DNA of 64,000 bases from an uncultured Selenomonadales bacterium (GCA_937877545.1 CALFJE010000093.1:27519-91518); one strand, 5' to 3'; positions 10,988 through 32,331 are shown, counted from the stretch's first letter. Translations and numbers: made by a program. The notes: generated from the letters alone by a model not told the origin.

Positions 10988-12616
10988 ATGGCGAAGGATA
11001 ATTTTTTTGGCAAGAAATATTTATATGAGGTATTGCCGATGTTGAAGTGGGTAGCCGAACAGGTACCGGGCGGCTTTTTCGTCTACTCCGCCAAGGAACC
11101 CTACGAGCTTTTTTACGCCAACAGCGAGGTTTTGGAAATTTACGGTTGCGAGGATTTGGACGAGTTCAAGGCTCTGACGGGTTACACGTTCCAAGGCATG
11201 GTTCACCCCGACGACTTTTCCGCAATTCAAAAGTCAATCGAGGAGCAGATAGCCGACCCCGATAACGACCGCCTCGACCACGTGGAGTATCGAATCACGC
11301 GCAAAGACGGCTCTATCCGCTGGATTGACGACTACGGACACTTTGCGACCTTCCCAGAACACGGCGACGCCTTTTATGTCTTCATCAGCGATATAACGGA
11401 ACGGCGGCTCATTCGGGAGGAAAAGTTGCGTATGGAAATGGAACTCGACAAGGCGAAACAGGCGAACGAAATCAAGGCGGCGTTCCTGTTCAATATTTCG
11501 CACGACATCTTGACGCCGCTAAATTCAATACGCGGCTTTACGGAATTGTCATTGCGGCACCTCCACGAACCCGAACTTTTAAAGACGTATCTGGAAAAAG
11601 TCGACGAATCCAGCCGGCAAATGCTTACGCTCGTCAATGACCTGCTTGACATGAGCAAAATCACCTACGGCAAGACGCAACTGCGAACCGAGGTTTGCGA
11701 CCTGGAGGAGCAAGTTTTGACCGTCCTGCACCTCTTCCGTAAAAAAGCCGACGCCAAAAATATCGCCCTCGAAAGCGTTATCAATCTGCCCCGCGAACTC
11801 GTCTATACCGACGACGTGAACTTGAGGAAAATTCTCTCCGCGCTGATTGACAACGCCATTAAGTTCACGCCCGACGGCGGGCACGTCAAAGTTACGGCGC
11901 GTAAAAAGAAAATTTCCGATTCGGGCTACGTCCGTTGCGAATTCATAATTGAGGACGACGGCGCAGGCATCAGCGAAGATTTTATGCAACGCATGTATGA
12001 GAGCTTTGAACGCGAGGAGACTTCGACGAAGACGGGGCATATCAGCGCGGGACTCGGCTTGACGATAACCAAAAAGCTCCTTGAGGCTATGGGCGGCTCA
12101 ATCGAAGTCGTCAGCAAAAAGGACGAAGGCTCCACCTTTACGGTCGGCTTGCCGTTTAAGTTCGTGCGCGACGAAGCGGAGGACGTTGCCGCCATTGATA
12201 CGATAACCGCCGATAACAACTACATGAATCGTATCCTGCTCGTCGACGACATTGAGCTTAACCGTATGCTTGCCGAGACGATTCTGGAGGAGTCGGGCTT
12301 TTCCGTCGAGACGGTTGCCGACGGTTGCGACGCCGTGGAAGCTTTTATCAAGCACCCGCCCGGCTACTATGACCTCGTGCTTATGGATATTCAAATGCCC
12401 GTAATGAACGGCTACGAGGCGACGCGTGCTATCCGTGCGCTTGACCGCCCCGACGCCAAAGTTTTGCCGATTATCGCGCTAAGTGCCAACAGCCGCGACG
12501 AGGATAAGCGTATGAGCATGGAAAGCGGCATGAATTATCATATCGCCAAGCCCTTCGACGTGGTTCAGCTTATCGCCGCCGTCAACAAATATATCGCCGC
12601 GCGAAAGGAAGTTTGA
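10988..12616 (+). CDS. PAS-domain hybrid sensor histidine kinase / response regulator
   Basis: 542 aa. PAS region, H-box FNISHDILTPLNSI, HATPase (DNAIKFT, DDGAGI, GLGLTI), C-terminal REC (LLVDD, LVLMDIQMPVMNG, AKP). Confidence 0.9.
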   Translation: MAKDNFFGKKYLYEVLPMLKWVAEQVPGGFFVYSAKEPYELFYANSEVLEIYGCEDLDEFKALTGYTFQGMVHPDDFSAIQKSIEEQIADPDNDRLDHVEYRITRKDGSIRWIDDYGHFATFPEHGDAFYVFISDITERRLIREEKLRMEMELDKAKQANEIKAAFLFNISHDILTPLNSIRGFTELSLRHLHEPELLKTYLEKVDESSRQMLTLVNDLLDMSKITYGKTQLRTEVCDLEEQVLTVLHLFRKKADAKNIALESVINLPRELVYTDDVNLRKILSALIDNAIKFTPDGGHVKVTARKKKISDSGYVRCEFIIEDDGAGISEDFMQRMYESFEREETSTKTGHISAGLGLTITKKLLEAMGGSIEVVSKKDEGSTFTVGLPFKFVRDEAEDVAAIDTITADNNYMNRILLVDDIELNRMLAETILEESGFSVETVADGCDAVEAFIKHPPGYYDLVLMDIQMPVMNGYEATRAIRALDRPDAKVLPIIALSANSRDEDKRMSMESGMNYHIAKPFDVVQLIAAVNKYIAARKEV

Positions 12617-12667: not shown

Positions 12668-12964
12668 ATGGAAATCAAAAAGGATCAGCAAGGCAACGCA
12701 TTGACAATCAAAATCATCGGTAGGCTCGACGCGGCAAGTGCGCCCGAACTCTCCAAGGAATTGACGACCGCGCTCAACGGCGTAACGGATTTGACGTTCG
12801 ACTTCGCGGAGCTGAAGTATATCGCCTCGGCGGGACTGCGCGTGTTGCTCGTGGCTCAAAAGCGCATGAACAAGCAAGGCTCCATGAAACTTATCAACGT
12901 CAGCGAGGCTGTCATGGAAGTTTTGGATATGACGGGCTTCGCCAGCTTGATGACTATCGCTTAA
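12668..12964 (+). CDS. STAS-domain anti-sigma-factor antagonist
   Basis: 98 aa. Typical pattern ..LTIKIIGRLDA.SAPEL...DFAELKYIASAGLRVLL with a phosphorylatable Ser. Confidence 0.9.
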   Translation: MEIKKDQQGNALTIKIIGRLDAASAPELSKELTTALNGVTDLTFDFAELKYIASAGLRVLLVAQKRMNKQGSMKLINVSEAVMEVLDMTGFASLMTIA

Positions 12965-12970
12965 TGAGGA

Positions 12971-13384
12971 ATGATTATGGAAAAAATTACGGTTGAGGCG
13001 GTGCTCGACAGTCTGCAGACGGTTATCGACTTCGCGACCGAAAAACTCGAAGAGCGCGATTGCCCCATGAAAGTTTCAATGCAGTTGGAGCTGGTTATCG
13101 AAGAGATTTTCGTCAACATTGCCAGCTACGCCTATCACCCTGAAATTGGTGCCGCGACGTTTTGCATGTCATTTGAAGAAAATCCCTCCGCCGTGCTCAT
13201 GACGTTCATTGACGGCGGCAAGCCCTACAATCCCCTCGAACACGACGACCCCGATACCACCCTCGACGTTGACGAACGCGACATCGGCGGGCTTGGAATT
13301 TTCCTCGTCAAAAAGAATGTCGACGAAATTTCCTACGAATACACGGGGGGGAAAAATATTCTCCACATGAAAAAATTTTTCTGA
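12971..13384 (+). CDS. RsbW/SpoIIAB-like anti-sigma regulatory Ser kinase (GHKL ATPase)
   Basis: 137 aa. N-box LVIEEIFVNIASYAY, G1 FIDGGKPYNP, G2 IGGLGIFLV. Confidence 0.85.
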   Translation: MIMEKITVEAVLDSLQTVIDFATEKLEERDCPMKVSMQLELVIEEIFVNIASYAYHPEIGAATFCMSFEENPSAVLMTFIDGGKPYNPLEHDDPDTTLDVDERDIGGLGIFLVKKNVDEISYEYTGGKNILHMKKFF

Positions 13385-13394
13385 GGTCGTGCTC

Positions 13395-15554
13395 ATGAAG
13401 TGGACTATACAAAAAAGACTGCTCGTCCTCGTGTTGGCGGCGGGGATATTGTCATTCTTGACATTGAGCGGTCTTTCTTTTTACGGCATGAACGTTATGC
13501 GCGGCGAAATGACGAAGCTGGGCGACAAGGTCGGTGAGGCAGGCGCGGATTTTACCGAAAACCTCATGACTTATCAGCTCAAGCAGACGCTCGGCGAATT
13601 GGCGACTTCCCGCGCAGGTTTCATTGACCACGAAATAAATCTGATTCGCCTGGACGTGGAAATTATGTCGCACATAATGACGCGTATCGCCTCCAATCCC
13701 GACGATTACAAACCCGTCAAGCTCCTCAATCCGCAATCCGAGCCGGTTTTTAATACCGAAACTTATCTGACTTACGGTCCCGACGTTAAGCGCGACGGCT
13801 TAAGTCCGGCTCTGGAGCGCGAGATTGGTATTGCCGGCAATATCCGCGCCCTCATGATGCCGCTGGCAAAGTCGTTTATCAATTACAAGTCGGCTTTCTA
13901 CGTCGGCTCCAAGCACGGCTACTTTATCTGCAGCAGCGTCTTCCCCGACAGGACGGAGGCGTTGCCCTTTGAGGAAAGCGAGTTCTTTGACTACGACCCG
14001 CGTGAGCGTTCGTGGTACAAGGCTGCGATTGCGGCGGGTGCGCCCGTTTTCTCCGACATTTACACGCACGTCAACATCAGCGAATATCAGCTTATCGGCT
14101 GTTCCGCGCCCTACTACGACGCGGCGGGCAATGTGGCGGGTGTCGTCGGAATTGACGTTTCGAGTAAGGACATTTACAACGCGATTGCCGAGACGTCTAT
14201 CGGCGAGAACGGTTTCAGCTTCGTTTTGAACGGCAAGGGCGAAGTGATTCTTTCCACGCGAGCCGAAGGCGACTTGGCGGCTAAGGAGGGCGGGCTTGAC
14301 CTGCGCGGAAGTTCCGAGCCGACTTTGGCGGACGCGGCAAGCAAGATGGTCGGCGGGCAAAACGGTATCCTGCCCGTGACGGTTGACGGCGAGGAATATT
14401 TTATCGCCTTCGCGCCCATGAAACGTATCGGCTGGAGTTTCGCCACGTTGACGCCCGGTAAAGATATAGTTGCCGCCGCCGCCGACAGCCGCAATTATTT
14501 CCTCACGCAGATTGCCGGCTTCCGCACGCGCTTTCAAGATAAATTCTTCATGATGACGTTGGCGGGCATGATTCTGCTTGCGGGCTTGAGCCACGTTTTC
14601 CTTACGGCAAGCAAAAAAGAATCTGAGCGGGTCGTCAAGCCGATTCACGAGCTGGCTGACGGCGTTCGCGAAATTTCAAGCGGCAACCTCGACAAAAAGC
14701 TCGACATTCAAACGGGCGACGAGATTGAACACCTTGCTACCTGCTTTAACGCCATGACCGACGAGCTAAAAACTTATATGACGAACCTTACCAAAGTCAC
14801 GGCGGAAAAGGAGCGCATAGCCACGGAGCTGGACGTTGCCACGGAGATTCAGCGCGGCATGTTGCCCAAGGATTTTCCTAACCGCGCAGATTTTGAGCTG
14901 TTAGCGACAATGACACCCGCCAAAGAGGTCGGCGGCGACTTCTACGATTTCTACATGTTGGACGAGACGCACCTGGCGATAACGGTTGCGGACGTGTCGG
15001 GCAAGGGGATACCCGCCGCGCTGTTCATGGTTATCGCCAAGACGATACTTAACAACTTCGCGGTGTCGACGCACAATCGCGAGGGGCTGGCAGAGGTTGT
15101 AGCCGCCGCCAACGATAAGCTTTGCGCCAACAACGAGGCGATGATGTTCGTGACGGCGTTTATCGGCGTGCTGGACTTGGAGACGGGCGAATTCGTCTTC
15201 GTGAATGCGGGGCACAATCCTCCCGTATGGTTCCGCGATAATCATTGCGAATTCCTCGATGTCAAGAAAAACTTTGTCCTCGGACCTATGGACGGTATTC
15301 CTTTCGAGGAGCAGAGGATAACGCTAAAGCCCGGCGATTTGCTCTTCCTGTACACCGACGGCGTGACAGAGGCTCTTAACACTGCGGACGAGGAATATTT
15401 GCCCGACCGATTGATAGCGTTCATGAACTCAACCGATTGCCGCGCACCGTTGGAAACTTTGCTTGCGAACGTCCGCGCTGATGTGGCGGCTCACGTCGGC
15501 GAGGCTGAGCAATCCGACGATATAACCATGTTCGCCTTGAGGTTTAAGAAATGA
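13395..15554 (+). CDS. Membrane dCache-HAMP-PP2C (SpoIIE/RsbU-type) phosphatase, paralog 1
   Basis: N-terminal TM, Cache-like FDYDPRERSWYKAA..IGCSAPYYD, second TM, HAMP (PIHELADGVREISSGNLDKKL), PP2C (EVGGDFYDF, DVSGKGIPAALFM, YTDGVTEA, QSDDITM). Confidence 0.9.
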   Translation: MKWTIQKRLLVLVLAAGILSFLTLSGLSFYGMNVMRGEMTKLGDKVGEAGADFTENLMTYQLKQTLGELATSRAGFIDHEINLIRLDVEIMSHIMTRIASNPDDYKPVKLLNPQSEPVFNTETYLTYGPDVKRDGLSPALEREIGIAGNIRALMMPLAKSFINYKSAFYVGSKHGYFICSSVFPDRTEALPFEESEFFDYDPRERSWYKAAIAAGAPVFSDIYTHVNISEYQLIGCSAPYYDAAGNVAGVVGIDVSSKDIYNAIAETSIGENGFSFVLNGKGEVILSTRAEGDLAAKEGGLDLRGSSEPTLADAASKMVGGQNGILPVTVDGEEYFIAFAPMKRIGWSFATLTPGKDIVAAAADSRNYFLTQIAGFRTRFQDKFFMMTLAGMILLAGLSHVFLTASKKESERVVKPIHELADGVREISSGNLDKKLDIQTGDEIEHLATCFNAMTDELKTYMTNLTKVTAEKERIATELDVATEIQRGMLPKDFPNRADFELLATMTPAKEVGGDFYDFYMLDETHLAITVADVSGKGIPAALFMVIAKTILNNFAVSTHNREGLAEVVAAANDKLCANNEAMMFVTAFIGVLDLETGEFVFVNAGHNPPVWFRDNHCEFLDVKKNFVLGPMDGIPFEEQRITLKPGDLLFLYTDGVTEALNTADEEYLPDRLIAFMNSTDCRAPLETLLANVRADVAAHVGEAEQSDDITMFALRFKK

Positions 15555-17752
15555 AACTTAGCATCCATAAAAAAGTTTTGCGATTGGTATTGGGCGCGGG
15601 CTTGACGACGTTCCTGGTACTGGGCGCGTTTTCGTACTTCGGCAAGAGCGTAGTGCAACGCGATATGGTGGAGATGAGCGTCGAGCTGGGCGAAAAGAGC
15701 GCGGCTTACACCGAAGAACTTTTAATAGACCAACTCAAGCAGACACTGGGCGAACTTGCCGCAGCAAAGGCGCAATTCATCGATAGGGAGATGACAATCA
15801 CCCGCGACGACGCAACCATTTTGGCGAACGCCGTTACCGAGATAATGTCGCACCCCGAAAATTATTCGCCCAAGCCTTTGCCCGACCCGCACACCGACTC
15901 CATAAAGAATGCCGAGCCGTTTTGTTTTTACGCGCCCGCTGTTCGCGACAACATTACGCCCGAACTTCAAAGCGAATTGGAGCTTGCCGGTAACGCCAAA
16001 GATTTGCTCATCGAAATGATTAAGAGTTACACGGGCGTCAATGCGACGGTATTTATCGGCGGCGAGACCGGCTGGTTCATTGGCACTGCCATATCGCCCG
16101 ACGAAAACGGGCATACCGACTTCAACGCGAACATACCTCGAAACGTTTTCGACTTCGACCCGCGCAAGCGTCCCTGGTACGTATCTGCAAAAAATGCCGG
16201 TGTGCCCGTCATCTCCGACCTTTACCGCACGCTTGAGGCGGACGGTTATCAGCAAATCGGCGCGTCGGCACCCTTTTATGACGCGGCGGGCAATATGATT
16301 GGCGTCGCCGGCTTGGACTCCTCCAACACCGATATGTACGACTGGATAAATCGTGCGACCGTCGGCAAGGGCGGTATAAATTTTGTAATTAACGAACGCG
16401 GCGAGGTTATTTTTTCGTCGCAGAAAAGCGGCACGTTTGCCGTAAATGCGGACGACGACCTTACGGCGCGAGCGGGCGGGCGCGATTTGCGCAACAGCTC
16501 CGAGAAAACGTTGGCGGCGGCGGCAAGCAAAATGGTCGGCGGCGAGCAGGGCGTTTTACCGTTGAGTCTGGGCGGCGAATCTTTTTACATTGCCTACGCG
16601 CCGATACCGTCAACGGGCTGGAGTGTAGGGATGATAATCGCCGACGAGGATGTTTTCACCGCGACGCAAAGCACGCAAAATTATTTCTTAAAGCAAGTCG
16701 GCAATCTGCAGGCGCAAATGTTGCAGGATTATTCCTACCTTAACACGGTCGCGTTGGTGATACCGGTCGTCCTGCTGATAATTTTGTTCTTTATGAGCAC
16801 GAACTTATCGCAACGATTTGTTAAGCCGATTCATGAACTGGCGGACGGCGTAAGGGACATTTCAAGCGGCAACCTCGACAAAAAGCTGGATATTCACACG
16901 GGTGACGAGATTGAACACCTTGCCACCTGCTTTAACGCCATGACTGACGAACTTAAAACTTATATGGCGAACCTGACTAAGGAGACCGCCGAAAAGGAAC
17001 GCCTCGCCACGGAGCTTGACGTTGCCACGGAGATTCAGCGCGGCATGTTGCCCAAGGATTTTCCTAACCGCGCAGATTTTGAGCTGTTAGCGACAATGAC
17101 ACCCGCCAAAGAGGTCGGCGGCGATTTCTACGATTTCTACATGTTGGACGCGACGCACCTGGCGATAACGGTTGCTGACGTTTCGGGCAAGGGGATACCC
17201 GCCGCGCTTTTCATGGTCATATCAAAGACGGTGCTGAACAACTTCGCGACGAGCTTTTATCGGCAGAACGGCTTGGCACCGGTGGTGGAGGCGTCGAACG
17301 AGCAACTTTGCGCCAACAACGAGGCGATGATGTTCGTGACGGCGTTTATCGGGGTGTTGGACTTGGAAAGCGGCGAATTCGTCTTCGTGAACGGCGGGCA
17401 CAATCCTCCCGTGATTTATCGTGCGGAAAATAATCATTGTGAATTCCTCGACGTCAAGAAAAATTTCGTGCTCGGACCTATGGACGGTATTCCTTTCGAG
17501 GAGCAACGGATAACGCTAAAGCCCGGCGATTTGCTCTTCCTGTATACTGACGGCGTAACGGAGGCTTTGAACGTAAAAGACGAGGAATATCTGCCCGACC
17601 GATTGATAGCGTTCATGAACTCGACGGATTGCCGCGCCGATTTGCAAACCTTACTTGCGAATGTCCGTGCAGATGTGGCGGCTCACGTCGGCGAGGCTGA
17701 ACAATCCGACGATATAACCATGTTCGCCTTGAGATTCAAAGGCAAGGCTTAA
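15551..17752 (+). CDS. Membrane dCache-HAMP-PP2C phosphatase, paralog 2
   Basis: ATGA start/stop overlap with paralog 1. Same architecture. The HAMP-PP2C half is near-identical to paralog 1, while the sensor half has diverged. Confidence 0.9.
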   Translation: MKLSIHKKVLRLVLGAGLTTFLVLGAFSYFGKSVVQRDMVEMSVELGEKSAAYTEELLIDQLKQTLGELAAAKAQFIDREMTITRDDATILANAVTEIMSHPENYSPKPLPDPHTDSIKNAEPFCFYAPAVRDNITPELQSELELAGNAKDLLIEMIKSYTGVNATVFIGGETGWFIGTAISPDENGHTDFNANIPRNVFDFDPRKRPWYVSAKNAGVPVISDLYRTLEADGYQQIGASAPFYDAAGNMIGVAGLDSSNTDMYDWINRATVGKGGINFVINERGEVIFSSQKSGTFAVNADDDLTARAGGRDLRNSSEKTLAAAASKMVGGEQGVLPLSLGGESFYIAYAPIPSTGWSVGMIIADEDVFTATQSTQNYFLKQVGNLQAQMLQDYSYLNTVALVIPVVLLIILFFMSTNLSQRFVKPIHELADGVRDISSGNLDKKLDIHTGDEIEHLATCFNAMTDELKTYMANLTKETAEKERLATELDVATEIQRGMLPKDFPNRADFELLATMTPAKEVGGDFYDFYMLDATHLAITVADVSGKGIPAALFMVISKTVLNNFATSFYRQNGLAPVVEASNEQLCANNEAMMFVTAFIGVLDLESGEFVFVNGGHNPPVIYRAENNHCEFLDVKKNFVLGPMDGIPFEEQRITLKPGDLLFLYTDGVTEALNVKDEEYLPDRLIAFMNSTDCRADLQTLLANVRADVAAHVGEAEQSDDITMFALRFKGKA

Positions 17753-22009: not shown

Positions 22010-22830
22010 GTCTCCCTAAAAAGTTTGTCTATAATCAAGCACATTGGCGAAATCATGGCGAGGTTATGGACGCGCAGGAGGTCGAAGCCTTGCATAATCG
22101 CATGGACGCACAGTGCTCCCGTTGCTTCGTCGCGCTCTTCGACGGGAAAGCCCGTTGCCCAGCCGATAACGCTTTTGCGGCTCACGCCCAGCATTAAGGG
22201 AATTTCGCACCCGTCCAAAGTCTTAAGTTCACCGAGGCGGCGGAGTATCGTCCAATTTTCCTCTTGCGTCTTGCCGAAGCCGATACCGGGGTCGAAGATA
22301 ATCTGCGCGGGGTCTAAGCCGCGAGCCGCGCAGGTGTCCGAAGTTCTGCGGAAAAATCTTTGCAAGTCGGCAATGATGTCGCCGTCGGAGCAACGTTCGC
22401 AATGCCCGGCGATAACGGGCGCGTTGAACTTTTTGGCAACGTCAATCATGCGCGAATCCTCCAGCCCGTGCACGTCGTTGATAATGTCCGCGCCGAGTTC
22501 AAGGGCTTGGGCGGCGACTTCGGGCTTGTAGGTGTCGACGGAGACGGGAACGCCGAAAGTTTTAATGGCGGGCAAGACCTTTTCGAGACGGGTAATTTCC
22601 TCGTCGCTGCTTACGGGCGTGGAACCGGGGCGCGTGGATTCTGCGCCGATGTCGAGGATGTCCGCGCCGTCTTCAATCAGTTGCGCCGCGTGCGCCATTG
22701 CCTTATCCGCCGAGAAATATTTGCCGCCGTCGGAGAAGGAGTCGGGCGTTATGTTCAAAATCCCCATCAATAACGTTTTGCCGCCGACGGTCAGCTTGTG
22801 TCCGCCGCGCAGATTGAAAGTTCTCTTCAT
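22006..22830 (-). CDS. folP: Dihydropteroate synthase
   Basis: 274 aa. GILNITPDSFSDGG, DILDIGAESTRPG, DPGIGFGKT and SRKS motifs. Confidence 0.93.
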   Translation of the reverse strand: MKRTFNLRGGHKLTVGGKTLLMGILNITPDSFSDGGKYFSADKAMAHAAQLIEDGADILDIGAESTRPGSTPVSSDEEITRLEKVLPAIKTFGVPVSVDTYKPEVAAQALELGADIINDVHGLEDSRMIDVAKKFNAPVIAGHCERCSDGDIIADLQRFFRRTSDTCAARGLDPAQIIFDPGIGFGKTQEENWTILRRLGELKTLDGCEIPLMLGVSRKSVIGWATGFPVEERDEATGALCVHAIMQGFDLLRVHNLAMISPMCLIIDKLFRET

Positions 22831-22848
22831 AACCTGCCTCCCGGTGGC

Positions 22849-22918
22849 TAGTTCCTAGTGGCTAGTAGCTACTCCCTACTCCCTACTCCCTACTCCCTAC
22901 TCCCTAATTCCTGATTTA
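22849..22918. repeat. Ten perfectly phased heptamers: TAGTTCC TAGTGGC TAGTAGC (TACTCCC)x5 TAATTCC TGATTTA
   Basis: Read directly. Lies in the 5' region of folP (- strand) and upstream of the RND operon promoter. Confidence 0.9.
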
Positions 22919-22950
22919 GCATTATAGCGCATTGCCGGCTTAAGTTCAAA

Positions 22951-22979
22951 TTGACATTTAGCCGCCGAAACCGTAAAAT
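22951..22979 (+). promoter_or_regulatory. Sigma70-type promoter of the MFP/transporter/RND operon
   Basis: TTGACA (22951-22956), 17-nt spacer, TAAAAT (22974-22979). Confidence 0.65.
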
Positions 22980-23015
22980 TTCTTTTGAAATTTTCAATAA
23001 GTGGGAGGGGTCGAA

Positions 23016-24296
23016 GTGGTTTTATCGAAAGCCAAATTGATGATACCGGCGGCAATGTTGGCAGCGTCGTCAATAGTTTTCGGCGGCTGCGGCGACGACA
23101 ATAATCAGCAGCAAGCGCAAGTTCAAAAGGCGCAAGTCAAGGCGATGAAGGTCATTCAACGCGACACGCCGCTGGCAAGTGAGTACGCGGGACATCTCGT
23201 CGGCACGGAGGAGGTTAAAGTTCAGGCAAAAATATCCGGCAACGTCGTCGAGAAATTGGTAAACGGTGGGCAATACGTTGAGCAGGGACAGCTCCTCTAC
23301 CGAATCGATTCGCGCCAATACAAATCCGCCGTCCTTCGGGCGCAAGCAGACCTGGCTCAAGCCGAGGCGGTGCTCGACCAATCGGTAGCGACTTACAACA
23401 ACTCCTTGGCGGATCTCAGACGCGACGAACAACTCTTGGCGGAGGCGGCCATAGCCGAGCAAGTCGTCACCACTCAAGCCGCCAAAGTTCGCGCAGATGA
23501 GGCAACTTGCGCCGCCAACGAGGCAGCCATTTACGCCTGTCAAGCCGCGCTCCGCACCGCACAGGAGGATCTTGCCGATACCGAAATCTACGCGCCCATG
23601 ACGGGGCAGCTCGGCGTCGACGACGTGGCGGTCGGTACCTTCGTATCGGCGGGGCAAACCACGCTCGTAACTATCGGCTCGCCCGACCCTATCTTTGCGC
23701 AGTTTTCTATCAGCGAAGCCGATTATCTGCACTTCATGACGGTTCAGAATATGCAATCCGACCATAACCCGATTGGCGTCACCATAACGCTTGCCGACGG
23801 TAAGGAATATCCCTTCGAGGGGCGTATCGTCGAGGTTGACCGCGAACTTGCCAACAGTACCGGTTCGCTCATCATGAAAGCAATTTTCCCAAATCCCAGC
23901 GGCTTGCTTATGCCGGGCATGTTCGCCCGCGTCAAGCTCAGCGGCGAAGTCATTCCCAACGCAATCTTGGTTCCTCAACGCGCCGTCCAACAACTTTTGG
24001 GCAAATCGTTCGTTATGGTTGTCGGCGCGGAGGATAAGTCAGAAGCCCGCACCGTCGAACTCGGCGACCAGGTCGGCAGTTACTTCGTTGTCAACAAGGG
24101 CATTGGCACGAGCGATACCGTTATCGTCGAGGGCTTGACCAACTTGCGCGAGGGCGTCGAGCTTGCCGTCAAGACCGTCACGCCCGGCGAAATGGGCTTT
24201 ACCCTTGCCAACGTCGTGAGTACTTACAACGCCGACGCGGGGCTTGACGCGCCCAATACCAATCCCAACGCGCCCGACAATCTGCGCGGAAGGTAA
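23016..24296 (+). CDS. RND efflux periplasmic adaptor (membrane fusion protein, AcrA/HlyD family) lipoprotein
   Basis: GTG 23016 after GGGAGGGG. Lipobox SIVFGGC. Coiled-coil hairpin and barrel motifs (YAPMTGQLG.., GMFARVKL). Confidence 0.85.
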   Translation: MVLSKAKLMIPAAMLAASSIVFGGCGDDNNQQQAQVQKAQVKAMKVIQRDTPLASEYAGHLVGTEEVKVQAKISGNVVEKLVNGGQYVEQGQLLYRIDSRQYKSAVLRAQADLAQAEAVLDQSVATYNNSLADLRRDEQLLAEAAIAEQVVTTQAAKVRADEATCAANEAAIYACQAALRTAQEDLADTEIYAPMTGQLGVDDVAVGTFVSAGQTTLVTIGSPDPIFAQFSISEADYLHFMTVQNMQSDHNPIGVTITLADGKEYPFEGRIVEVDRELANSTGSLIMKAIFPNPSGLLMPGMFARVKLSGEVIPNAILVPQRAVQQLLGKSFVMVVGAEDKSEARTVELGDQVGSYFVVNKGIGTSDTVIVEGLTNLREGVELAVKTVTPGEMGFTLANVVSTYNADAGLDAPNTNPNAPDNLRGR

Positions 24297-24308
24297 GAGG
24301 TCGCTTTG

Positions 24309-25931
24309 ATGAAGGCTTTTCATTTGGATGCGGAAAACTTCGCCGATATGCAGACGAAACTTGAGCCGCAACTTGAGCAACTTAAAATCAAGCAGAAAGA
24401 TATTTTGGACGCGGAGCTTTTGGTCGAGGAAATTTTTTGGCGCATGGTCAACAAGGGCAAAGCCGCGCAGGTTAAAGTTCAAGTCGTCAAACGGCTTTTC
24501 GGCAAAGTTCAAGTTCAAATGACGGCGGAAGGTGCGCCTTACAGTCCGCTTATCGAATTGTCGGATTGGGACGAAGATACGGACGACGAAGATTATTTCA
24601 GCATGATGATTCTTAAAGCCAATCGGCAGAAAATGAATTGGCTCCGCAAGAATAATCTTAACGTCATCACGATTAACGTCCGCAGTGAAAGCAACTTGCA
24701 GACTGTCCTGACGGTGGCGGGCATTTTCGGCGGACTGATTTGCGGCGTCCTCATGCGCGAATTCCTTTCGCCCGAAGCCGAGGCTTTTATCTGCGAGACG
24801 ATTATCCGCCCGCCCGAAACAATGTTCCTCAACGCGCTGAGCCTGCTCATTGCGCCGGTGATTTTCTTCAGCGTGGCGAGCGGGATAATCGGCATGAACG
24901 CGGGCGCAAACGTCGGGCGAATCGGCTCAAAACTTATCGGGCTGTACCTTTGCACGAGCGTACTTGCTTCGATTGTCGGGCTGAGCGTCGCGGAATTTTT
25001 ATTCGGAAACGGCGTGCCGCAAATCGGGACGATTCCGACCGATGCCGCCGTCGAAAGCTACGAATTCTCCATGATTAAATTTATCGTCGACCTAATCCCC
25101 GCCGATTTCGTCAGACCCATTGCCGAGGGGAAAATCCTGCAGATTATTTTTATCGCGATATTTTTTGGCATATCCATTAACGCGCTCGGCAACAAAGTCG
25201 CGCCACTCAAGGAGCTGGTCGGCAACCTGAACGATGTTTTTGCAAAAATGATGTCTATGGTAATGTTCTTCGTGCCGTTGATTGCCTTCTTCGCGATGAC
25301 AATTTTGGCTCTCGAACTCGAAGCCGAAGCCGTAATGATTATATCCAAACTGATTATTGTACAACTGGTCGCGGCTCCGGTGCTGTTCGGCGTCTTCCTG
25401 ATTTTTATCGGGCGCGTCGGGAAAATTTCCTTTAAGCCCTTCGCCAAAAAAGGTCTCGCGCTTCTGCCGCCCGCCTTCGCAACAAGCAGTACAAGTGCCG
25501 TTATGTCGCAGATGATGAATCTTTGCACGGGCAAACTGGGCGTTTCGCCGAAAATCTCTTCGTTCGCCGTACCGCTTGGGGCGTCGGGTCTGAACTGTGC
25601 CGGTGCCATGATTTATATTATTACGGTCTGTGTCATGCTGTTAAAGATGTACGGCGTGGAGCTTGACTTGCAAACCTGCGCATTGTTTGCGGTCTTGTCG
25701 GTGCCGATAACTGTCAGCACACCGATGGTGCCGGCGGCTTCGGTAATTTGCATTGTGACCATTGCCGCCTGCTTTGGCGTCCCGAATGATGTTGCGGCGT
25801 TGATATTTTGCCTCGACGCTTTGAGCGACAGGATTGCCACTTGTATGAACGTCTTATCGAATATGACGGCGACGACAACGCTTGCGCGAACCGAAAATCT
25901 TTTGGACGAGAAAATTTATTTTGAGGAGTAA
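24309..25931 (+). CDS. Dicarboxylate/amino acid:cation symporter (DAACS/SDF family) with an N-terminal degenerate RsbW-like GHKL domain, paralog 1
   Basis: About 130-aa soluble N-domain alignable to the 12971-13384 protein. Then SDF core (LLIAPVIFFSVASGIIGM...GRIGSKLIGLYLCTS... ATSSTSAVMS). Confidence 0.75.
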   Translation: MKAFHLDAENFADMQTKLEPQLEQLKIKQKDILDAELLVEEIFWRMVNKGKAAQVKVQVVKRLFGKVQVQMTAEGAPYSPLIELSDWDEDTDDEDYFSMMILKANRQKMNWLRKNNLNVITINVRSESNLQTVLTVAGIFGGLICGVLMREFLSPEAEAFICETIIRPPETMFLNALSLLIAPVIFFSVASGIIGMNAGANVGRIGSKLIGLYLCTSVLASIVGLSVAEFLFGNGVPQIGTIPTDAAVESYEFSMIKFIVDLIPADFVRPIAEGKILQIIFIAIFFGISINALGNKVAPLKELVGNLNDVFAKMMSMVMFFVPLIAFFAMTILALELEAEAVMIISKLIIVQLVAAPVLFGVFLIFIGRVGKISFKPFAKKGLALLPPAFATSSTSAVMSQMMNLCTGKLGVSPKISSFAVPLGASGLNCAGAMIYIITVCVMLLKMYGVELDLQTCALFAVLSVPITVSTPMVPAASVICIVTIAACFGVPNDVAALIFCLDALSDRIATCMNVLSNMTATTTLARTENLLDEKIYFEE

Positions 25932-25936
25932 GTTTA

Positions 25937-27547
25937 ATGCAAGCTTTGAATTTGAGCGCGGAGAATTTTTCCGCCATGCAAGAGGATTTGGAAGTTCAGC
26001 TTACGCGGGCGAAGATTGAGCTTAAAGACGCCTTGCGGGCGGAGCTTTTGGTCGAAGAAATTTTTTGGCGCATGGTCAACAAAGGCGGAGCCGCGCAGGT
26101 TAAAGTTCAAGTCGTCAAAAGCTTTTTCGGCGGCGTATCAATTCAAATGACGGCGGAGGGTGCCGCTTACAATCCGCTCGTCGAAGTGTCGGATTTGGGC
26201 GAGGACGACGAAGACTATTTCAGCCTGATGATTCTTAAAGCCAATCGGCAAAAGATGACGTGGCTCCATAAAAATAATTCCAACGTCGTTACAATCCGCG
26301 TCAGCAACGAAAAGAATCTCCGCCTGAAATTTACTTTTGCGGGCATTGTCGGCGGCGTGATTTGCGGCTTCCTCCTGAAAGAATCCGCCGCGCCCGAAAC
26401 GATTGCCCTAATCACCGAAAATATCATAAATCCGATTTATACGATGTTTATGCACGCGCTGAGCATGGTTATCGCGCCGGTGATTTTCTTCAGCGTGGCG
26501 AGCGGGATAATCGGCATGAACGCGGGCGCAAACGTCGGGCGAATCGGCTCAAAACTTATCGGGCTGTACCTTTGCACGAGCGTACTTGCTTCGATTGTCG
26601 GGCTGAGCGTCGCGGAATTTTTATTCGGAAACGGCGTGCCGCAAATCGGGACGATTCCGACCGATGCCGCCGTCGAAAGCTACGAATTCTCCATGATTAA
26701 ATTTATCGTCGACATAATCCCCGCAAACCTCGTAAGCCCCATTGCCGACGGCAACTTAATGCAAGTGATTTTTATCGCGGTGCTGTGCGGGCTTGCCCTT
26801 AACGCGCTGGGCAACAAAGTCCGAATCCTCCGCGACTTTTTTGCCGACTGCAACGAATTTTTTATGAAGCTCGTCACGATGATAATTTTCTTCGTGCCGC
26901 TGATAGCGTTCTTCGCCATGACGACGTTGATAACGCAGACGGGCGGCGATGCCCTCCTCATGGTGGGCAAGCTGATTATCGGACTGATTATCGCAAGTTG
27001 CGTAATGCTCGGCGTCTATATGCTGTTGGTTCGATTTATCGGGAAACTTTCGCCGTTGCCCTTCCTGAAAAAAATCCCGTCGTTGTGGGCGGTGCCGTTC
27101 GCGACAAGCTCCAGCGCGGTCACCATGCCTTTTACCATGGATTTATGCACAAAAAAAATGGGCGTCGCGCCGAAAATCTCTTCGTTCTCCATACCGATTG
27201 GCGTGACGGTCAACATGGACGGTGCTTGTATTTACCTGCCGGTCGCCGCTATTATGCTCCTGAAAATGTACGGCGTCGCGGTCGATTTCAACGCGCTGAT
27301 TATAATTTTCGCAATGACCGCGATGTTGTCAATCGGTTCGCCCGCCGTGCCAAATGCCGCCGTCATTTGCGTTATAACCATTGTTGCGTTGTTCGGCGTG
27401 CCGGCGGACATTGCGGGGCTTTTGTTTTGTATTGATATTGTTTGCGACAGGATTGTCACTTGCTTTAACGTGACCGGCGACGTGGCGGCGACTGTGGCTT
27501 TGGCGCGAACAGAAAATCTGCTCGACAAGAAAATTTACTTCAGCTGA
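25937..27547 (+). CDS. DAACS/SDF symporter with an N-terminal degenerate GHKL-like domain, paralog 2
   Basis: Same architecture as paralog 1. GAGGAG RBS. 240 nt are identical to paralog 1. Confidence 0.75.
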   Translation: MQALNLSAENFSAMQEDLEVQLTRAKIELKDALRAELLVEEIFWRMVNKGGAAQVKVQVVKSFFGGVSIQMTAEGAAYNPLVEVSDLGEDDEDYFSLMILKANRQKMTWLHKNNSNVVTIRVSNEKNLRLKFTFAGIVGGVICGFLLKESAAPETIALITENIINPIYTMFMHALSMVIAPVIFFSVASGIIGMNAGANVGRIGSKLIGLYLCTSVLASIVGLSVAEFLFGNGVPQIGTIPTDAAVESYEFSMIKFIVDIIPANLVSPIADGNLMQVIFIAVLCGLALNALGNKVRILRDFFADCNEFFMKLVTMIIFFVPLIAFFAMTTLITQTGGDALLMVGKLIIGLIIASCVMLGVYMLLVRFIGKLSPLPFLKKIPSLWAVPFATSSSAVTMPFTMDLCTKKMGVAPKISSFSIPIGVTVNMDGACIYLPVAAIMLLKMYGVAVDFNALIIIFAMTAMLSIGSPAVPNAAVICVITIVALFGVPADIAGLLFCIDIVCDRIVTCFNVTGDVAATVALARTENLLDKKIYFS

Positions 27548-27580
27548 CCCCAAACTATAACTTGAAAAGGAGGAGGTAAC

Positions 27581-30500
27581 TTGGCAAAGTTCTTTATTCA
27601 TCGACCGATATTCGCGATAGTCATTGCGCTGATAATAACGCTCGTCGGTATCCTGGCGGCGTTGCAACTGCCTATCGCCCAATATCCGCAAATTTCCCCG
27701 CCGACAATCTCCGTAAGTACCACCTACACCGGCGCGAATGCCTCCGTCGTCAACGAGACCATTGCGCAGGTTATCGAGCAACAGGTCAACGGCACCGACG
27801 GCATGGACTACATGAGCTCCAACTCCGACGATACGGGGCGTTACAGCCTCAGCGTCGTCTTCGCGGTCGGCACCGACGGCGATATGGACTCCGTTAAAGT
27901 TCAAAACAACGTAGCCATTGCCAACGCCAGCTTGCCAACCGACGTTCAGCGCGTAGGCGTCACGACCCGTAAGGCGTCAAACGAAATGGCTCTGTTCCTC
28001 GCCATGTATTCGCCCACCGGTGAATACGACCGCGCCTTTATGAAGAATTATTCCGATATTTACCTCATGGACGAGATTAAGCGCGTCGACGGCGTGGGCG
28101 ACGTTCAAATCTTCGGCTCCGATTACTCCATGCGCATTTGGCTCAACCCCGATAAGCTTGCCGAGCTGGACTTGACGGTTGCCGAGGTTGCCGCCGCCAT
28201 TAACGAGCAAAACCTCCAAGCGGCGGCGGGTACTATCGGCTCCATGCCGCTTTCTCAAGGGCAGGAAAAGCAATATACCGGCAAAGTTCAGGGGCGTCTC
28301 ACCGAGATTGAGGAGTTCGGCAACATTATCCTCAAGGCGAACAGCGACGGCACCTTTGTTTACATGAAGGACGTTGCGCGAATCGAATCGGGGCAGAAAG
28401 CCAACAACATTATCGCCAAATTCAACGGCTATCCGTCCGTCGGCTTCGGCATTCAGCTTACCTCCGACGCAAACGCCATGACGACCGTCCGCGGCGTGCA
28501 AGACATCATCGAGCGTCAACGCCCGAATCTGCCGCCCGGACTTTACATCAGCGAAATTTTCGACAGCACCGACTTTATCCGCGCCTCAATCAACGAGGTT
28601 GCTCACACATTCTTTGAGGCGTTGCTGTTGGTCGTGCTGGTTATCTTCGTGTTCCTGCAGAGCTGGCGGGCGACGCTGATACCGCTCCTCGCGGTGCCGG
28701 TTTCGCTAATCGGGACGTTCGCGGCGTTCGTTGCCCTGGACTTCTCAATCAACACGCTGACATTATTCGCAATGGTTTTGGCAATCGGGTTGGTCGTCGA
28801 CGACGCAATAGTCGTTATAGAAAACGTCGAACACCACATGGAAGAGGGACTTCAGCCCGTCGACGCGACCGAACGCGCAATGGACGAAGTTCAAGGACCC
28901 GTCGTGGCTATCGCGTTCGTATTGGCGGCGGTGTTCGTGCCCGTGGCGTTCCTGGGCGGCATGATGGGCGTATTGTATCGGCAATTCGCTTTGACGATAG
29001 CAATATCAATGGGCTTATCGGCATTCGTCGCGCTCACGTTGACGCCGGCTCTTTGCGCCATGATCCTCAAGCCCAAAAATCCCGATGCCAAGCGCGGTTT
29101 CTTCGACAAATTCTTTGACGGCTTCAACAACTGGTTCGACCGCACGAAAAATTCTTACGTCGGCATTGTCGGCAATTTTATCAAGGTGTCGAAGTTGGCG
29201 ATAGTCTTCCTGCTTATCGTCGGCGGCGTGACGTGGCTTGTCTATCAGCGGCTCCCGTCCACGTTCGTGCCCGAAGAAGACCAAGGCTATTTCTTCACGT
29301 CGATAAACCTGCCCGAAGGTACCTCGATGAATCACACCGTTGAGACGATTGACAAGCTCGGCGCGGCGGTTATGAAGGAAATGCCCGGCTTGAAAAACTG
29401 CATGATGATTACGGGCTTTGATATTCTGTCGTTCGGCTCCAAACCCAGCGCGGGCATAATCGTTTGCGGTTTGGAGGATTGGACGAAGCGCGGCGCGGAC
29501 GCCTCAATCAACGCGTGTATCGGGACTATGTTCCGCCTCGGCGCAATGACGGTACCCGAAGCGCAAGTTATCGCGTTCAACCCGCCCGCACTGCCCGGCT
29601 TGGGTAACGTCGGCGGCTGGTCGTTGCAACTGCAGGATATGGCGGGTCACACCGACGAGGAGCTTGACGCCTTGACGAAACGAATCGTCGCCAAAGCCAA
29701 TCAGCGTCCCGAAATGCAGGGCGTGCGCACGACCTTTAACATTGCCACGCCGACCGTTGAGTATGAGATTGACCGCGAAAAGGTTAAGCTCCTCGGCGTG
29801 CAGCTGTCCGACGTGTTTGACGCGTTGCAAGTCAATTTCGGCGGTATGCAGGTCAACGACTTTAACAAATTCGGGCGGACGTATAAGGTTATGCTTCAAT
29901 CGGACGTGCTGTATCGCTCCGAGGCTGAATGCTCAAGGTTCGTCTTCGTGAAGGGTTCGGGCGGGCAAATGGTTCCGCTTGACAGCCTTGTCACGCCGCG
30001 CTACTCCACCGGTCCGACGCAAATATCAAGGTTTAACGCCGCCCGCGCCGTCACGATTCAAGGCAATGCGGGCGCGGGTTACAGCTCCGGTCAAGCCATG
30101 AACGCTATAGAGGAAATTGTCCGCGAGGAGGCGGGCGTCGGCTTCAATATCGAATGGTCGGGGCAGTCCCGCGAAGAAAAGAAAGCCGCCAGTTCAACGG
30201 GACAAGTCTTGGCGTTGGCGTTGGTGTTCGTCTTCCTTATGCTTGCCGCGCTGTACGAAAGCTGGAGCGTGCCGTTCGCGGTGCTCTTGAGCGTGCCGAC
30301 GGGCTTATTCGGCGCGGTCGTCTCGGAATACGTGTTGGCGGCAATATCGGCGTCTATGCACAACGGGCAAGCCAATGCGGGGCTTCAAGATTCGGTCTAT
30401 ATGCAGATTGGAATCATCATGATAATCGGCTTGGCGGCGAAAAACGCGATACTGATCGTCGAGTTCGCGAAAGTGCGCGTCGACAGGGGAATGGAAGTTA

Positions 30501-30775
30501 CCAAAGCGGCAATGGAGGCGGCGGGCTTACGTTTGCGCCCGATTTTGATGACGTCGTTCGCGTTCATAATCGGTTGCGTACCTTTGGCGACGGCGTCCGG
30601 GGCAGGCTCGGCGGCTCGTAACGGAATGGGCGTGGCGGTCGTCGGAGGAATGCTTTTCGCCACGATGCTTGGCGTCTTCGTTATCCCCGTGCTGTTCTAC
30701 ATAACCGAATACGTCGCAAAGAAACTCGGCTTCATGAAACAAGATCGTCATAAAACCTCCGTGGACTACATGTGA
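27581..30775 (+). CDS. RND multidrug efflux transporter (HAE1, AcrB-like)
   Basis: 1064 aa. MAKFFIHRPIFAIVIAL.. start, 12-TM layout with two large periplasmic loops, VVDDAIVVIEN motif. Confidence 0.95.
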   Translation: MAKFFIHRPIFAIVIALIITLVGILAALQLPIAQYPQISPPTISVSTTYTGANASVVNETIAQVIEQQVNGTDGMDYMSSNSDDTGRYSLSVVFAVGTDGDMDSVKVQNNVAIANASLPTDVQRVGVTTRKASNEMALFLAMYSPTGEYDRAFMKNYSDIYLMDEIKRVDGVGDVQIFGSDYSMRIWLNPDKLAELDLTVAEVAAAINEQNLQAAAGTIGSMPLSQGQEKQYTGKVQGRLTEIEEFGNIILKANSDGTFVYMKDVARIESGQKANNIIAKFNGYPSVGFGIQLTSDANAMTTVRGVQDIIERQRPNLPPGLYISEIFDSTDFIRASINEVAHTFFEALLLVVLVIFVFLQSWRATLIPLLAVPVSLIGTFAAFVALDFSINTLTLFAMVLAIGLVVDDAIVVIENVEHHMEEGLQPVDATERAMDEVQGPVVAIAFVLAAVFVPVAFLGGMMGVLYRQFALTIAISMGLSAFVALTLTPALCAMILKPKNPDAKRGFFDKFFDGFNNWFDRTKNSYVGIVGNFIKVSKLAIVFLLIVGGVTWLVYQRLPSTFVPEEDQGYFFTSINLPEGTSMNHTVETIDKLGAAVMKEMPGLKNCMMITGFDILSFGSKPSAGIIVCGLEDWTKRGADASINACIGTMFRLGAMTVPEAQVIAFNPPALPGLGNVGGWSLQLQDMAGHTDEELDALTKRIVAKANQRPEMQGVRTTFNIATPTVEYEIDREKVKLLGVQLSDVFDALQVNFGGMQVNDFNKFGRTYKVMLQSDVLYRSEAECSRFVFVKGSGGQMVPLDSLVTPRYSTGPTQISRFNAARAVTIQGNAGAGYSSGQAMNAIEEIVREEAGVGFNIEWSGQSREEKKAASSTGQVLALALVFVFLMLAALYESWSVPFAVLLSVPTGLFGAVVSEYVLAAISASMHNGQANAGLQDSVYMQIGIIMIIGLAAKNAILIVEFAKVRVDRGMEVTKAAMEAAGLRLRPILMTSFAFIIGCVPLATASGAGSAARNGMGVAVVGGMLFATMLGVFVIPVLFYITEYVAKKLGFMKQDRHKTSVDYM

Positions 30776-30784
30776 GCAAAAATT

Positions 30785-30818
30785 TAACCGTCGGAGCGAA
30801 ATGCTTTGGCGGTTTTTT
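30785..30818 (+). terminator. Rho-independent terminator after the RND pump
   Basis: AACCGTC..(AGC/GCT)..GGCGGTT followed by a T-run. Confidence 0.7.
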
Positions 30819-30876
30819 TGTGTAGCTGTCAGCTAAAGATGTCAGGCTATCAGGCAGTCGACAGTGGAAAAATTTT

Positions 30877-30885
30877 TGATAAAAT
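30877..30885 (+). promoter_or_regulatory. Extended -10 element TGaTAAAAT for the XRE-led cassette
   Basis: TGATAAAAT at 30877-30885, 30 nt before ATG 30915 with GGGAGGG RBS. Confidence 0.5.
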
Positions 30886-30914
30886 ATTTTCAAAATAGCC
30901 GGGAGGGCAACTGT

Positions 30915-31289
30915 ATGAAGGAAGACTGTCGTGAGGAGATGCGTTGTATCGGAATGCGTATTGCCGGTTTCAGGAAGATAAGGAACTTGACTCAAGCCGA
31001 ACTCGCCGACAAACTCTTCATAAGCAAAAAATATCTGTCGCATATCGAAAGTGCCTCTGCCAATAAAACTATTTCATTGCCGTTACTGATAAGAATTTCT
31101 CGCGTGTTGGACGTGGAATTGGCTTTGCTCACCGACATTGACGGCGTATATAAGTCCGACTTGAAAAATTTTTGGAGCGACATGAAAGATACTTTCGCGG
31201 AAATCAAAAAGCTCAACGACGATATGGACAGAATGCTTGATCAGCTTGAGCGGGCGGATAAAATTTTTTCCGGTAAAACTAAGGAGTGA
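30915..31289 (+). CDS. XRE-family helix-turn-helix transcriptional regulator with a helical C-terminal tail
   Basis: IGMRIAGFRKIRNLTQAELADKLFISKKYLSHIESA is a classic HTH_3 pattern. ATG at 30915 preferred over 30864. Confidence 0.85.
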   Translation: MKEDCREEMRCIGMRIAGFRKIRNLTQAELADKLFISKKYLSHIESASANKTISLPLLIRISRVLDVELALLTDIDGVYKSDLKNFWSDMKDTFAEIKKLNDDMDRMLDQLERADKIFSGKTKE

Positions 31290-31294
31290 TTTAA

Positions 31295-31471
31295 ATGGCT
31301 GAGGTCAAAAGCGCGAACTGTCCGCATGGCGGGCGCAAACTCGGCGCGTATCCGTTTGACTTGGCAAACACGCAACGCACGCACGGCACTTGTCCCGCTT
31401 GCGGCAAACGCTGCACCGTCGAATACGGCAAAGGCAAAATCAAAGTCAGCAAAGGTTTAGAAGGTGATTAG
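31295..31471 (+). CDS. 58-aa zinc-ribbon protein (not in the ORF track)
   Basis: My translation: MAEVKSANCPHGGRKLGAYPFDLANTQRTHGTCPACGKRCTVEYGKGKIKVSKGLEGD. AAGGAG RBS at 31281. CPxG..CPxCG pairs. Confidence 0.65.
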   Translation: MAEVKSANCPHGGRKLGAYPFDLANTQRTHGTCPACGKRCTVEYGKGKIKVSKGLEGD

Positions 31472-31472
31472 T

Positions 31473-32321: not shown

Positions 32322-32331
32322 GGCAAGCGTG

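Follow-up and report, generated by a model that had tools for sequence, protein, structure and literature searches.

What would a kinase-like domain be doing at the front of a membrane transporter, and why would two genes for such proteins lie inside what otherwise looks like an efflux operon? These questions are raised by a 64,000-nucleotide stretch of DNA from an uncultured Selenomonadales bacterium (GCA_937877545.1, CALFJE010000093.1:27519-91518), referred to here, at its whole length, as the window. Two tandem genes in it, which we call T1 and T2, encode transporters of the dicarboxylate/amino acid:cation symporter (DAACS) type that each begin with an additional domain, and they stand between the genes for a membrane-fusion protein (MFP) and an inner-membrane pump of the resistance-nodulation-division (RND) class. 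A first-pass annotation had taken the additional domain for a degenerate RsbW-like member of the GHKL superfamily and had suggested that a STAS protein encoded in the window switches partners onto it, making transport rather than transcription the regulated output. We find the identity of the domain well supported, and we consider the proposed switch possible, but hold it tentatively.

The amino-terminal domain of T1 and T2

Both open reading frames (ORFs) are present as the first-pass annotation had given them, T1 (540 aa) at 24309..25931 and T2 (536 aa) at 25937..27547, each on the plus strand, with an in-frame TTG one codon 5′ of the T1 start. The two proteins are 61% identical. Their assignment to the DAACS carriers is firm, with the Pfam family SDF (PF00375) covering residues ~134-527 of each at 232 bits for T1 and 300.6 bits for T2, far above the gathering score of 27.9. 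Some 130 aa lie N-terminal to the SDF core in each protein and make up the domain in question, hereafter the N-domain (24309..24710 in T1 and 25937..26332 in T2, both on the plus strand). For T1 its assignment draws on BLASTP, hidden Markov models (HMMs), hhalign and alignment, and for T2 on an AlphaFold (AF2) model, Foldseek and hhalign.

Searched in isolation, the N-domains of T1 and T2 have no match in Pfam or NCBIfam, even at E ≤ 1, while the free RsbW-like kinase encoded at 12971-13384 of the window scores 68.8 bits against the HATPase_c_2 model PF13581 (gathering score 27.4). The first-pass annotation had let its reading depend on a profile match to the GHKL/RsbW families. Pfam’s HATPase_c_2 model does miss the N-domain, but profiles built for the subfamily, together with the predicted structure, overturn that negative. 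The three segments previously aligned by hand between the N-domain and the window kinase were reproduced by BLASTP and MAFFT, the BLASTP alignment of the T1 N-domain spanning 108 aa at 23% identity (28 bits, pairwise E 1e-5). An HMM made from the N-domains of 49 full-length fusions matches the window kinase over almost its full length at 37.4 bits, and an HMM made only from six active kinases finds T2 at 43.0 and T1 at 41.6 bits, the best scores of any fusion apart from the fragment P0001 (P and L numbers are our handles for proteins and loci). A jackhmmer search started from the window kinase recruited every fusion. Aligned profile to profile with hhalign, 48 fused N-domains and six active kinases, the window’s among them, match over 124 columns with a probability of 98.8% and an E value of 8.8e-17. 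Searches with the N-domain profile also retrieve three stand-alone proteins of 134-138 aa (P0119, P0136 and P0137; E 2e-5 to 1e-4), which belong to HATPase_c_2 at 45-76 bits against Pfam and are among the weakest of the 151 matches described below.

The predicted structure points the same way. Modelled by AlphaFold from a 48-sequence alignment, the N-domain reached a pLDDT of 91.2 and a pTM of 0.85; this depth was needed for a reliable model, a five-sequence alignment giving a pLDDT of 40. The model has the Bergerat alpha/beta sandwich of the anti-sigma kinase type. When it was compared with the Protein Data Bank (PDB) by Foldseek, ranks 1-11 and 13-17 were taken by structures of the UsfX, SpoIIAB, RsbW and SiaB type at TM-scores of 0.5-0.67. 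These were Mycobacterium tuberculosis UsfX (8ih8, 8jzt), SpoIIAB (1tid, 1l0o, 1th8, 1til), RsbW (6m36, 6m37), SiaB (6kko) and the RsbW domain of Rv1364c (3ke6), and histidine-kinase CA domains appeared with weaker scores only. A sequence-profile search of the PDB with the N-domain alignment returned noise, its best match (E 0.36) being to designed coiled coils.

Profile, hhalign, structural and motif evidence thus agree with the earlier description, in which a DAACS core is fused to an RsbW-like GHKL domain that is not catalytic. Its profiles and its predicted fold assign the N-domain to the GHKL fold, within the RsbW/SpoIIAB branch, at a divergence beyond the reach of the curated model. We call it a pseudo-kinase relative of the RsbW/SpoIIAB kinases rather than a member, because it fails both the catalytic-motif test and the curated-model test. 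Its nearest active relatives, judged by the same comparisons, are of the kinase subfamily represented by the window gene 11 kb upstream, and that gene encodes its closest free relative.

The loss of the ATP-binding residues that the first-pass annotation had noted in these two proteins (the N-box asparagine changed to arginine, DGG to AEG, and the G2 glycines gone) holds for both, and it extends to the whole family. We took a census of 92 fused domains aligned with four active kinases, using the numbering of the window kinase. At N-box position 49, where the active kinases have Asn, the fused domains have mainly Arg (52), with Ser (8), Lys (8) and Leu (5) following, and Asn falls outside the six commonest residues. 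The G1 aspartate, Asp81 in the active kinases, is replaced by Ala (38), Ser (17), Val (10) or Tyr (9), and the G2 glycines Gly106, Gly107 and Gly109 are mostly Asp, Tyr and Arg, respectively. T1 and T2 carry Arg for Asn, Ala for Asp and DYFS for GGLG, and so lack the ATP-binding signatures of the N box (Asn), the G1 box (DxGxG) and the G2 box (GxGxG). The G2 box of the fused domains has in addition lost four residues, and with this deletion the ATP lid has been remodelled into a conserved acidic loop.

Other positions have been kept. Glu44 and Glu45, which are Glu in the active kinases, are retained in 92 of 92 and 88 of 92 fused domains, and the G1 glycine Gly83 in 87 of 92. Besides this Glu-Glu pair and the single G1 glycine, the fused domains preserve the (Y/F)NP motif that follows the G2 box, in the form NP(L), and a C-terminal KNG.N motif. 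Read from the alignment, the pattern is that of a pseudo-kinase apparently selected for something other than catalysis.

The fusion family and its STAS and kinase neighbours

When 1.84 billion protein representatives were searched exhaustively by hmmsearch, using a small profile of the N-domain, 151 proteins matched at E ≤ 1e-3, which puts the fusion at no fewer than 151 clusters when grouped at 50% identity; searches for homologues by word index had reached just 4 and 9 close fragments. Of the 151 proteins, 53 are 500-590 aa long and combine the N-domain with SDF, and most of the shorter ones read as fragments, cut at contig ends, of this same architecture. By the names of their sources, clusters fall in Slackia piriformis, Synergistaceae, Treponema sp. 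and Selenomonadaceae, all of them anaerobes from gut and rumen, in four phyla or more. The only annotation that any named member has is “dicarboxylate/amino acid:cation symporter”, and our literature searches found no description of a fusion between a dead kinase and a DAACS carrier. Substrate-site residues are heterogeneous across the family. Some members are further elaborated: ten (P0054, P0059, P0060, P0072, P0078, P0079, P0082, P0092, P0114 and P0145) have an extra N-terminal transmembrane helix before the pseudo-kinase domain, and in P0150 a membrane extension of ~200 aa with several helices precedes it. A separate observation concerns the ABC ATPase encoded 3′ of the Treponema-type fusion (L031 3431-4552; also L032 3323-4444), whose C-terminal extension, at residues ~267-348, weakly matches the N-domain HMM (in L031, at E 3e-6 against a small database). 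ABC ATPases, too, may carry a related dead-GHKL module.

The window itself encodes the components of a partner switch, and the STAS protein, the true RsbW-like kinase and the two PP2C phosphatases reported by the first-pass annotation were all identified by profile. The cluster, all on the plus strand, is headed by a hybrid histidine kinase with PAS-HisKA-HATPase_c-REC architecture (10988..12616). It continues with a single-domain STAS protein of the anti-anti-sigma type (12668..12964; STAS, 2e-15) with the conserved Ser in Y-I-A-S-A-G-L, the RsbW-like Ser kinase (12971..13384; HATPase_c_2, 5.6e-19) with its N, G1 and G2 boxes intact, and two dCache_1-HAMP-SpoIIE (PP2C) membrane phosphatases (13389..15554 and 15551..17752). 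A STAS protein with a phosphorylatable Ser, an intact kinase and PP2C enzymes are therefore encoded together at 12668-17752, as expected of a partner-switching module. The absence of a sigma factor was likewise confirmed, sigma-70-family models having no match in ~52 scanned window proteins, although small ORFs were not exhaustively scanned.

This STAS operon ends ~6.5 kb before the transporter genes, the STAS and kinase genes themselves lying ~11 kb away, and in between come an amidase gene and, encoded on the opposite strand, a uracil-DNA glycosylase (UDG) gene and folate genes. Nearness in the window was considered as evidence for a connection and rejected, since it is not conserved across the Selenomonadaceae loci.

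A closer association exists elsewhere. In L036, P0026, which is ~30% identical to T2, is encoded within the same-strand series HATPase_c_2, STAS, fusion, HD, STAS-APH and GAF-ABC_tran, where 13-29 nt separate the fusion from its neighbours. L034 and L035 have the order STAS, fusion, STAS-containing gene; beside P0045, a 98-aa STAS gene ends 4 nt 5′ of the fusion and a STAS-containing gene follows 3′. L041 has STAS then fusion, L042 has fusion then STAS-APH, and in L040 a HATPase_c_2 gene (83 bits) adjoins the fusion. The STAS proteins that abut fusions in L036, L034 and L041 are 48-54% identical to the window STAS protein, and the window kinase shares 46-49% identity with the kinases beside fusions in L036 and L040, so the STAS/kinase subfamily found in operons with fusions in other genomes is also the one that the window encodes. 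The Ser in Y-I-[SA]-S-A-G-L-R-V-L is invariant across all aligned STAS proteins. On homology and on these neighbourhoods, the window STAS protein is a candidate ligand of the transporter N-domains.

Two further observations belong to this STAS-linked clade. The STAS-APH proteins encoded 3′ of its fusions (L036 6699-7895, L042 1077-2270, L034 2024-2647 and L035 1491-2375) have STAS N-terminal to APH, an aminoglycoside-phosphotransferase/protein-kinase-like domain, and in L036 an HD gene with HD_4 and HD Pfam matches lies between the fusion and the STAS-APH gene, with GAF-ABC_tran after it. The idea that this clade is the most kinase-like, and so ancestral, was discarded, as the kinase-only HMM gave the opposite order, with its scores lowest and those of the window’s subfamily highest.

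The RND operon and the transporter cores

T1 and T2 do lie between an MFP gene (23001..24296, plus strand; 431 aa; HlyD_D23 1e-14, HlyD_3 1.5e-13) and an RND inner-membrane pump gene (27581..30775, plus strand; 1064 aa; ACR_tran, 1064 bits), as the first-pass annotation had remarked, and this layout proves to be conserved rather than an oddity of the window. The gaps along MFP, T1, T2 and RND are 12, 5 and 33 nt. On the plus strand, a promoter-like site, TTGACA-17-TAAAAT, at 22951..22979 agrees with the consensus at 11 of 12 positions and is the best in 22700-31400, and an intrinsic-terminator-like hairpin with a 13-bp stem and a T-run follows just 3′ of the RND stop codon at 30786..30814; both are pattern matches only. 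With these boundaries, the four genes look like one operon. Of the tripartite RND set, the window has the MFP and the RND pump; for the outer-membrane factor, which the earlier account had likewise reported as absent from the window, the OEP/TolC models found no match among the same ~52 scanned proteins, with small ORFs again not exhaustively scanned. It may be encoded elsewhere.

A genome scan started from four aligned sequences yielded 25 loci, every one of them in a rumen or gut metagenome-assembled genome of Selenomonadaceae or Selenomonadales, including Quinella sp. Sixteen of them have a complete arrangement of MFP, one to three fusion genes and RND, and four more are cut by contig ends but consistent with it. 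MFP orthologues lie 5′ of the fusion genes in the Selenomonadaceae loci, and the FolB-FolP ... HTH ... RecA synteny of the window is usually kept around the operons. These conserved loci make the split of adaptor and pump a family trait and not an accident of this window.

Fusion genes recur inside gene pairs that are otherwise contiguous. Apart from MFP/RND (window 23001-30775), a fusion lies between an amino-acid ABC permease and its ATPase (L031 3-4552), and another lies between PepP and EF-P in a second Selenomonadaceae paralogue group (L019-L023, around 8700-12200); an FlhB/FlhA pair (L051 5106-12473) holds two tandem fusion copies and His_Phos_1. This recurrent placement between adjacent genes could reflect chance, promoter-less acquisition or functional coupling.

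The transporter cores of T1 and T2 differ in what they have kept. T2 has canonical DAACS motifs (SSS in hairpin HP1, NMDG, HP2, and D..T..N...D in transmembrane helix 8, TM8), whereas the cation and substrate motifs of T1 are degenerate, NMDG having changed to NCAG and the terminal TM8 Asp to Asn. Set against the known carriers of TC 2.A.23 (GltPh, GltTk, 9bgz, DctA and SstT), the core aligns over ~370-400 residues, with ~130-139 bits to GltTk and GltPh, and the best solved homologue of the T2 core is the bacterial aspartate transporter 9bgz at 213 bits; what T1 and T2 have in excess of these is the N-terminal domain, and what T1 lacks is NMDG and the Na1 Asp. T2 retains the Asp equivalent to GltPh D394, which contacts the amino group, and the position of the carboxylate-binding Arg, GltPh R397, is Val in T2 and Ala in T1. 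NCBIfam equivalog models score 52-165 bits against cut-offs of 308-638 (DctA 165 against 513, GltP 130 against 638, SstT 105 against 308), which leaves the proteins outside all three equivalog families. For the substrate of T2, our best guess would be an amino acid that has no carboxylate in its side chain. The neighbours of fusion genes elsewhere, which include aminotransferases, PepP, an amino-acid ABC transporter and an M4 peptidase, likewise hint at an amino-acid substrate. An exact-product look-up of T2 returned no record.

A 240-nt tract is exactly shared by T1 (24852..25091) and T2 (26474..26713), both on the plus strand, against a background nucleotide identity of ~60% outside it, which indicates recent gene conversion between the tandem paralogues. 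T1-type copies also occur at L002 8305-9975, L008 1486-3114, L003 864-2519 and L018 9815-11587, where the sole fusion in the RND operon is of this type. Across such copies the NMDG position reads NCAG, NLPG, DATS, NMSS or NTAG and the terminal TM8 Asp is usually gone. We considered whether T1 is a decaying pseudogene and rejected the idea, as intact and similarly degenerate copies recur in those four loci. With intact ORFs and strong N-domains in several genomes despite their degenerate motifs, T1-type copies appear to be maintained, and from their sequences they are possibly non-transporting regulatory protomers or receptors alongside T2. Many T2-type orthologues in Selenomonadaceae, for their part, have NMNG or NSNG for NMDG (L005, L009, L010, L011, L013, L014, L017, the second copy of L008, and L012), so that the conserved cation-site Asp is replaced in them, which is unusual for DAACS carriers.

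The rest of the window provides some incidental observations. From 35 to 57 kb it holds a cluster of rpoA, secY, adk, ribosomal-protein, EF-Tu and EF-G genes. Inside the ribosomal-protein/secY/rpoA cluster, on the minus strand, lie a DAPG_hydrolase (PhiG) ORF (38379-39179; 238 bits) and a weak DeoC-like ORF (46843-47556), the latter either a real gene or an antisense artefact. An FhaA_N and FHA domain protein is encoded beside recA (34493-35347, minus strand), and a type I restriction-modification specificity (S) subunit near the window end (59336-60409, plus strand). Three consecutive ORFs 3′ of the HTH regulator (31464-33041, plus strand; 285, 116 and 121 aa) have no Pfam match, and a homologue of the first is encoded in L010, a syntenic locus, at 325 bits.

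Possible roles of the pseudo-kinase domain

The reading that we favour, as a possibility that falls somewhat short of an even chance and that is built on sequence comparison, is that the STAS/kinase module regulates the transporter through the dead-kinase N-domain. Unphosphorylated STAS would dock on the transporter’s own pseudo-kinase, and a signal received by the Cache-PP2C proteins would switch amino-acid transport without a sigma factor. The N-domain would have kept the ancestral binding of unphosphorylated STAS while being unable to phosphorylate it, and would gate or tune the transporter as a docking site sensitive to phosphorylation. STAS would be released when the free kinase (12971-13384) phosphorylates it, and the two Cache-sensor PP2C phosphatases would dephosphorylate it in response to extracellular ligand and restore binding. 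The near-invariant Glu pair and the acidic loop that replaces the ATP lid might disfavour phospho-STAS. What the switch controls would be transport, probably that of amino acids, and not transcription. In solved GltPh structures the N-terminus of the DAACS fold is cytoplasmic, so the N-domain would sit where STAS proteins are. The catalytic-base Glu pair adjoins the STAS phospho-serine in SpoIIAB:SpoIIAA complexes.

Several points weigh against this reading. RsbW-type proteins are dimers and DAACS carriers are trimers, and the geometry is not obviously compatible. In SpoIIAB the ATP lid contributes to STAS binding, and it is this element that an acidic loop has replaced in the fused domains. 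The STAS operon of the window forms a transcription unit separate from that of the transporters, and of the Selenomonadaceae loci whose upstream flanks are complete, only L013, L014, L017 and L018 have the PP2C pair within 10 kb. Adjacency of STAS or kinase genes is confined to one clade, in 5 of ~16 distinct contexts outside Selenomonadaceae; the 11 other contexts lack such a neighbour, as do all Selenomonadaceae loci. Four of the five positive contexts derive from metagenome assemblies that are related to one another, and most of the five were detected by a scan targeted at that clade. The N-domains of this clade are moreover the least kinase-like, at 10.8-17.8 bits with the kinase-only HMM. 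The first-pass proposal of a STAS protein switching onto the transporters is thus supported in part and indirectly, by the subfamily-matched STAS and kinase genes that abut fusions in one clade, and left without such help in most members, the window’s included.

The same distribution lends itself to another explanation, which we regard as unlikely but worth serious attention: that the dead GHKL fold has a role independent of STAS, whether as a plug for autoinhibition, in oligomerisation or in binding a small metabolite in its remodelled pocket, with the adjacency in one clade being a lineage-specific addition or a remnant of the domain’s origin. The lack of STAS or kinase neighbours in 11 of the ~16 sampled contexts and in all Selenomonadaceae loci, the conserved acidic loop where the lid was, and the spread of the family over four phyla or more with heterogeneous substrate sites would all fit such a role. 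Recurrence of one specific STAS/kinase subfamily beside the fusion, the same one that the window encodes, speaks against it, as does the Glu pair, which in the active systems lies next to the STAS phospho-serine and has stayed almost invariant although ATP binding is lost. Information could also flow in reverse, with the transporter acting as a sensor (a transceptor) whose N-domain, according to transport state, sequesters STAS or heterodimerises with the free kinase; the switching module would then have its phosphorylation state set by substrate flux, and the true output would lie elsewhere. We give this a rather low probability, of the order of one chance among several. It draws on the same homology and neighbourhood evidence as the reading we favour, RsbW-type kinases are obligate dimers, which makes a heterodimer of pseudo-kinase and kinase plausible, and the maintenance of T1-type copies without transport motifs is what one would expect of a receptor. 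There is also a precedent in DctA-DcuS, in which a DAACS carrier is the co-sensor of a kinase (PMC5703999). However, nothing in the window operon stands out as an alternative output protein; the STAS-linked operons do carry additional STAS-APH, HD and GAF-ABC genes.

The operon context invites a last alternative, namely that in this lineage the main role of the fusions is to serve the presumably co-transcribed RND efflux system, by importing a counter-substrate or by modulating the pump. The order MFP, fusion(s), RND in 16 complete and four truncated Selenomonadaceae loci, the short gaps and the single promoter-like and terminator-like sites that bracket the four genes are in its favour, and so is the L018 operon, whose only copy has degenerate transport motifs. 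Yet the whole FolB-FolP ... HTH ... RecA neighbourhood is syntenic, and the gene order may reflect no more than vertical inheritance. Outside Selenomonadaceae the fusion is never beside RND genes and occurs in unrelated operons instead (ABC, flagellar export, pepP-efp), and we know of no RND system that uses a DAACS partner; we consider this role improbable.

Regulation of the transporter by STAS, if it occurs, would stand at the meeting point of several known systems. With RsbW, SpoIIAB and UsfX (PF13581), the N-domain has in common the fold, the order of secondary structure, the size of ~130 aa and the EEIF, G.xYNP and KN..N..I motifs. It differs in being fused to a transporter rather than free, in lacking the N-box Asn, the G1 Asp and the G2 box and with them, as its sequence predicts, canonical Mg-ATP binding, and in having no sigma factor in view in the window. 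M. tuberculosis UsfX also works without phosphorylating its antagonists, and it would be the nearest functional analogue. Sigma-less partner-switching modules are common in genomes, and their outputs are mostly not known. Switches with non-sigma outputs have been described in Pseudomonas aeruginosa, where SiaB-SiaC acts on the cyclase SiaD, and in Bordetella BtrW-BtrV and Vibrio SypE-SypA (PMC8256260). The proposed system would share with SiaABCD, BtrVW and SypAE the set of STAS protein, GHKL Ser kinase and PP2C phosphatase and the control of something other than a sigma factor, and SiaB (6kko) is itself among the structural matches. Its output, in contrast, would be a secondary transporter, and its STAS receptor a dead kinase paralogue covalently attached to the target; our literature searches found no case of such a transporter-borne receptor.

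Another parallel is provided by the SLC26/SulP anion transporters, in which a C-terminal STAS domain is a cytoplasmic regulatory module (PMC8256260, PMC5703999). Both families fuse a partner-switching-type domain to a secondary transporter, but SLC26 proteins bear the STAS (antagonist) fold at the C-terminus, whereas the DAACS fusions bear the kinase/anti-sigma fold at the N-terminus, and the transporter folds are unrelated. DauA-DctA was considered as a STAS-mediated precedent and set aside, the interaction being through transmembrane domains (PMC5703999).

The N-domain has no Pfam model, and defining the family would improve the annotation of at least 151 symporter clusters. The motif-degenerate T1-type paralogues raise the possibility of non-transporting DAACS protomers that act as regulators. 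If the proposed switch is true, the fusions would constitute a previously unrecognised, multi-phylum family of regulated DAACS carriers, and they would complete a symmetry, with the STAS fold on SLC26 transporters and its partner fold on DAACS transporters. A dead-kinase receptor built into a transporter would then be a concrete, testable output for partner switching, giving these bacteria direct control of nutrient uptake.

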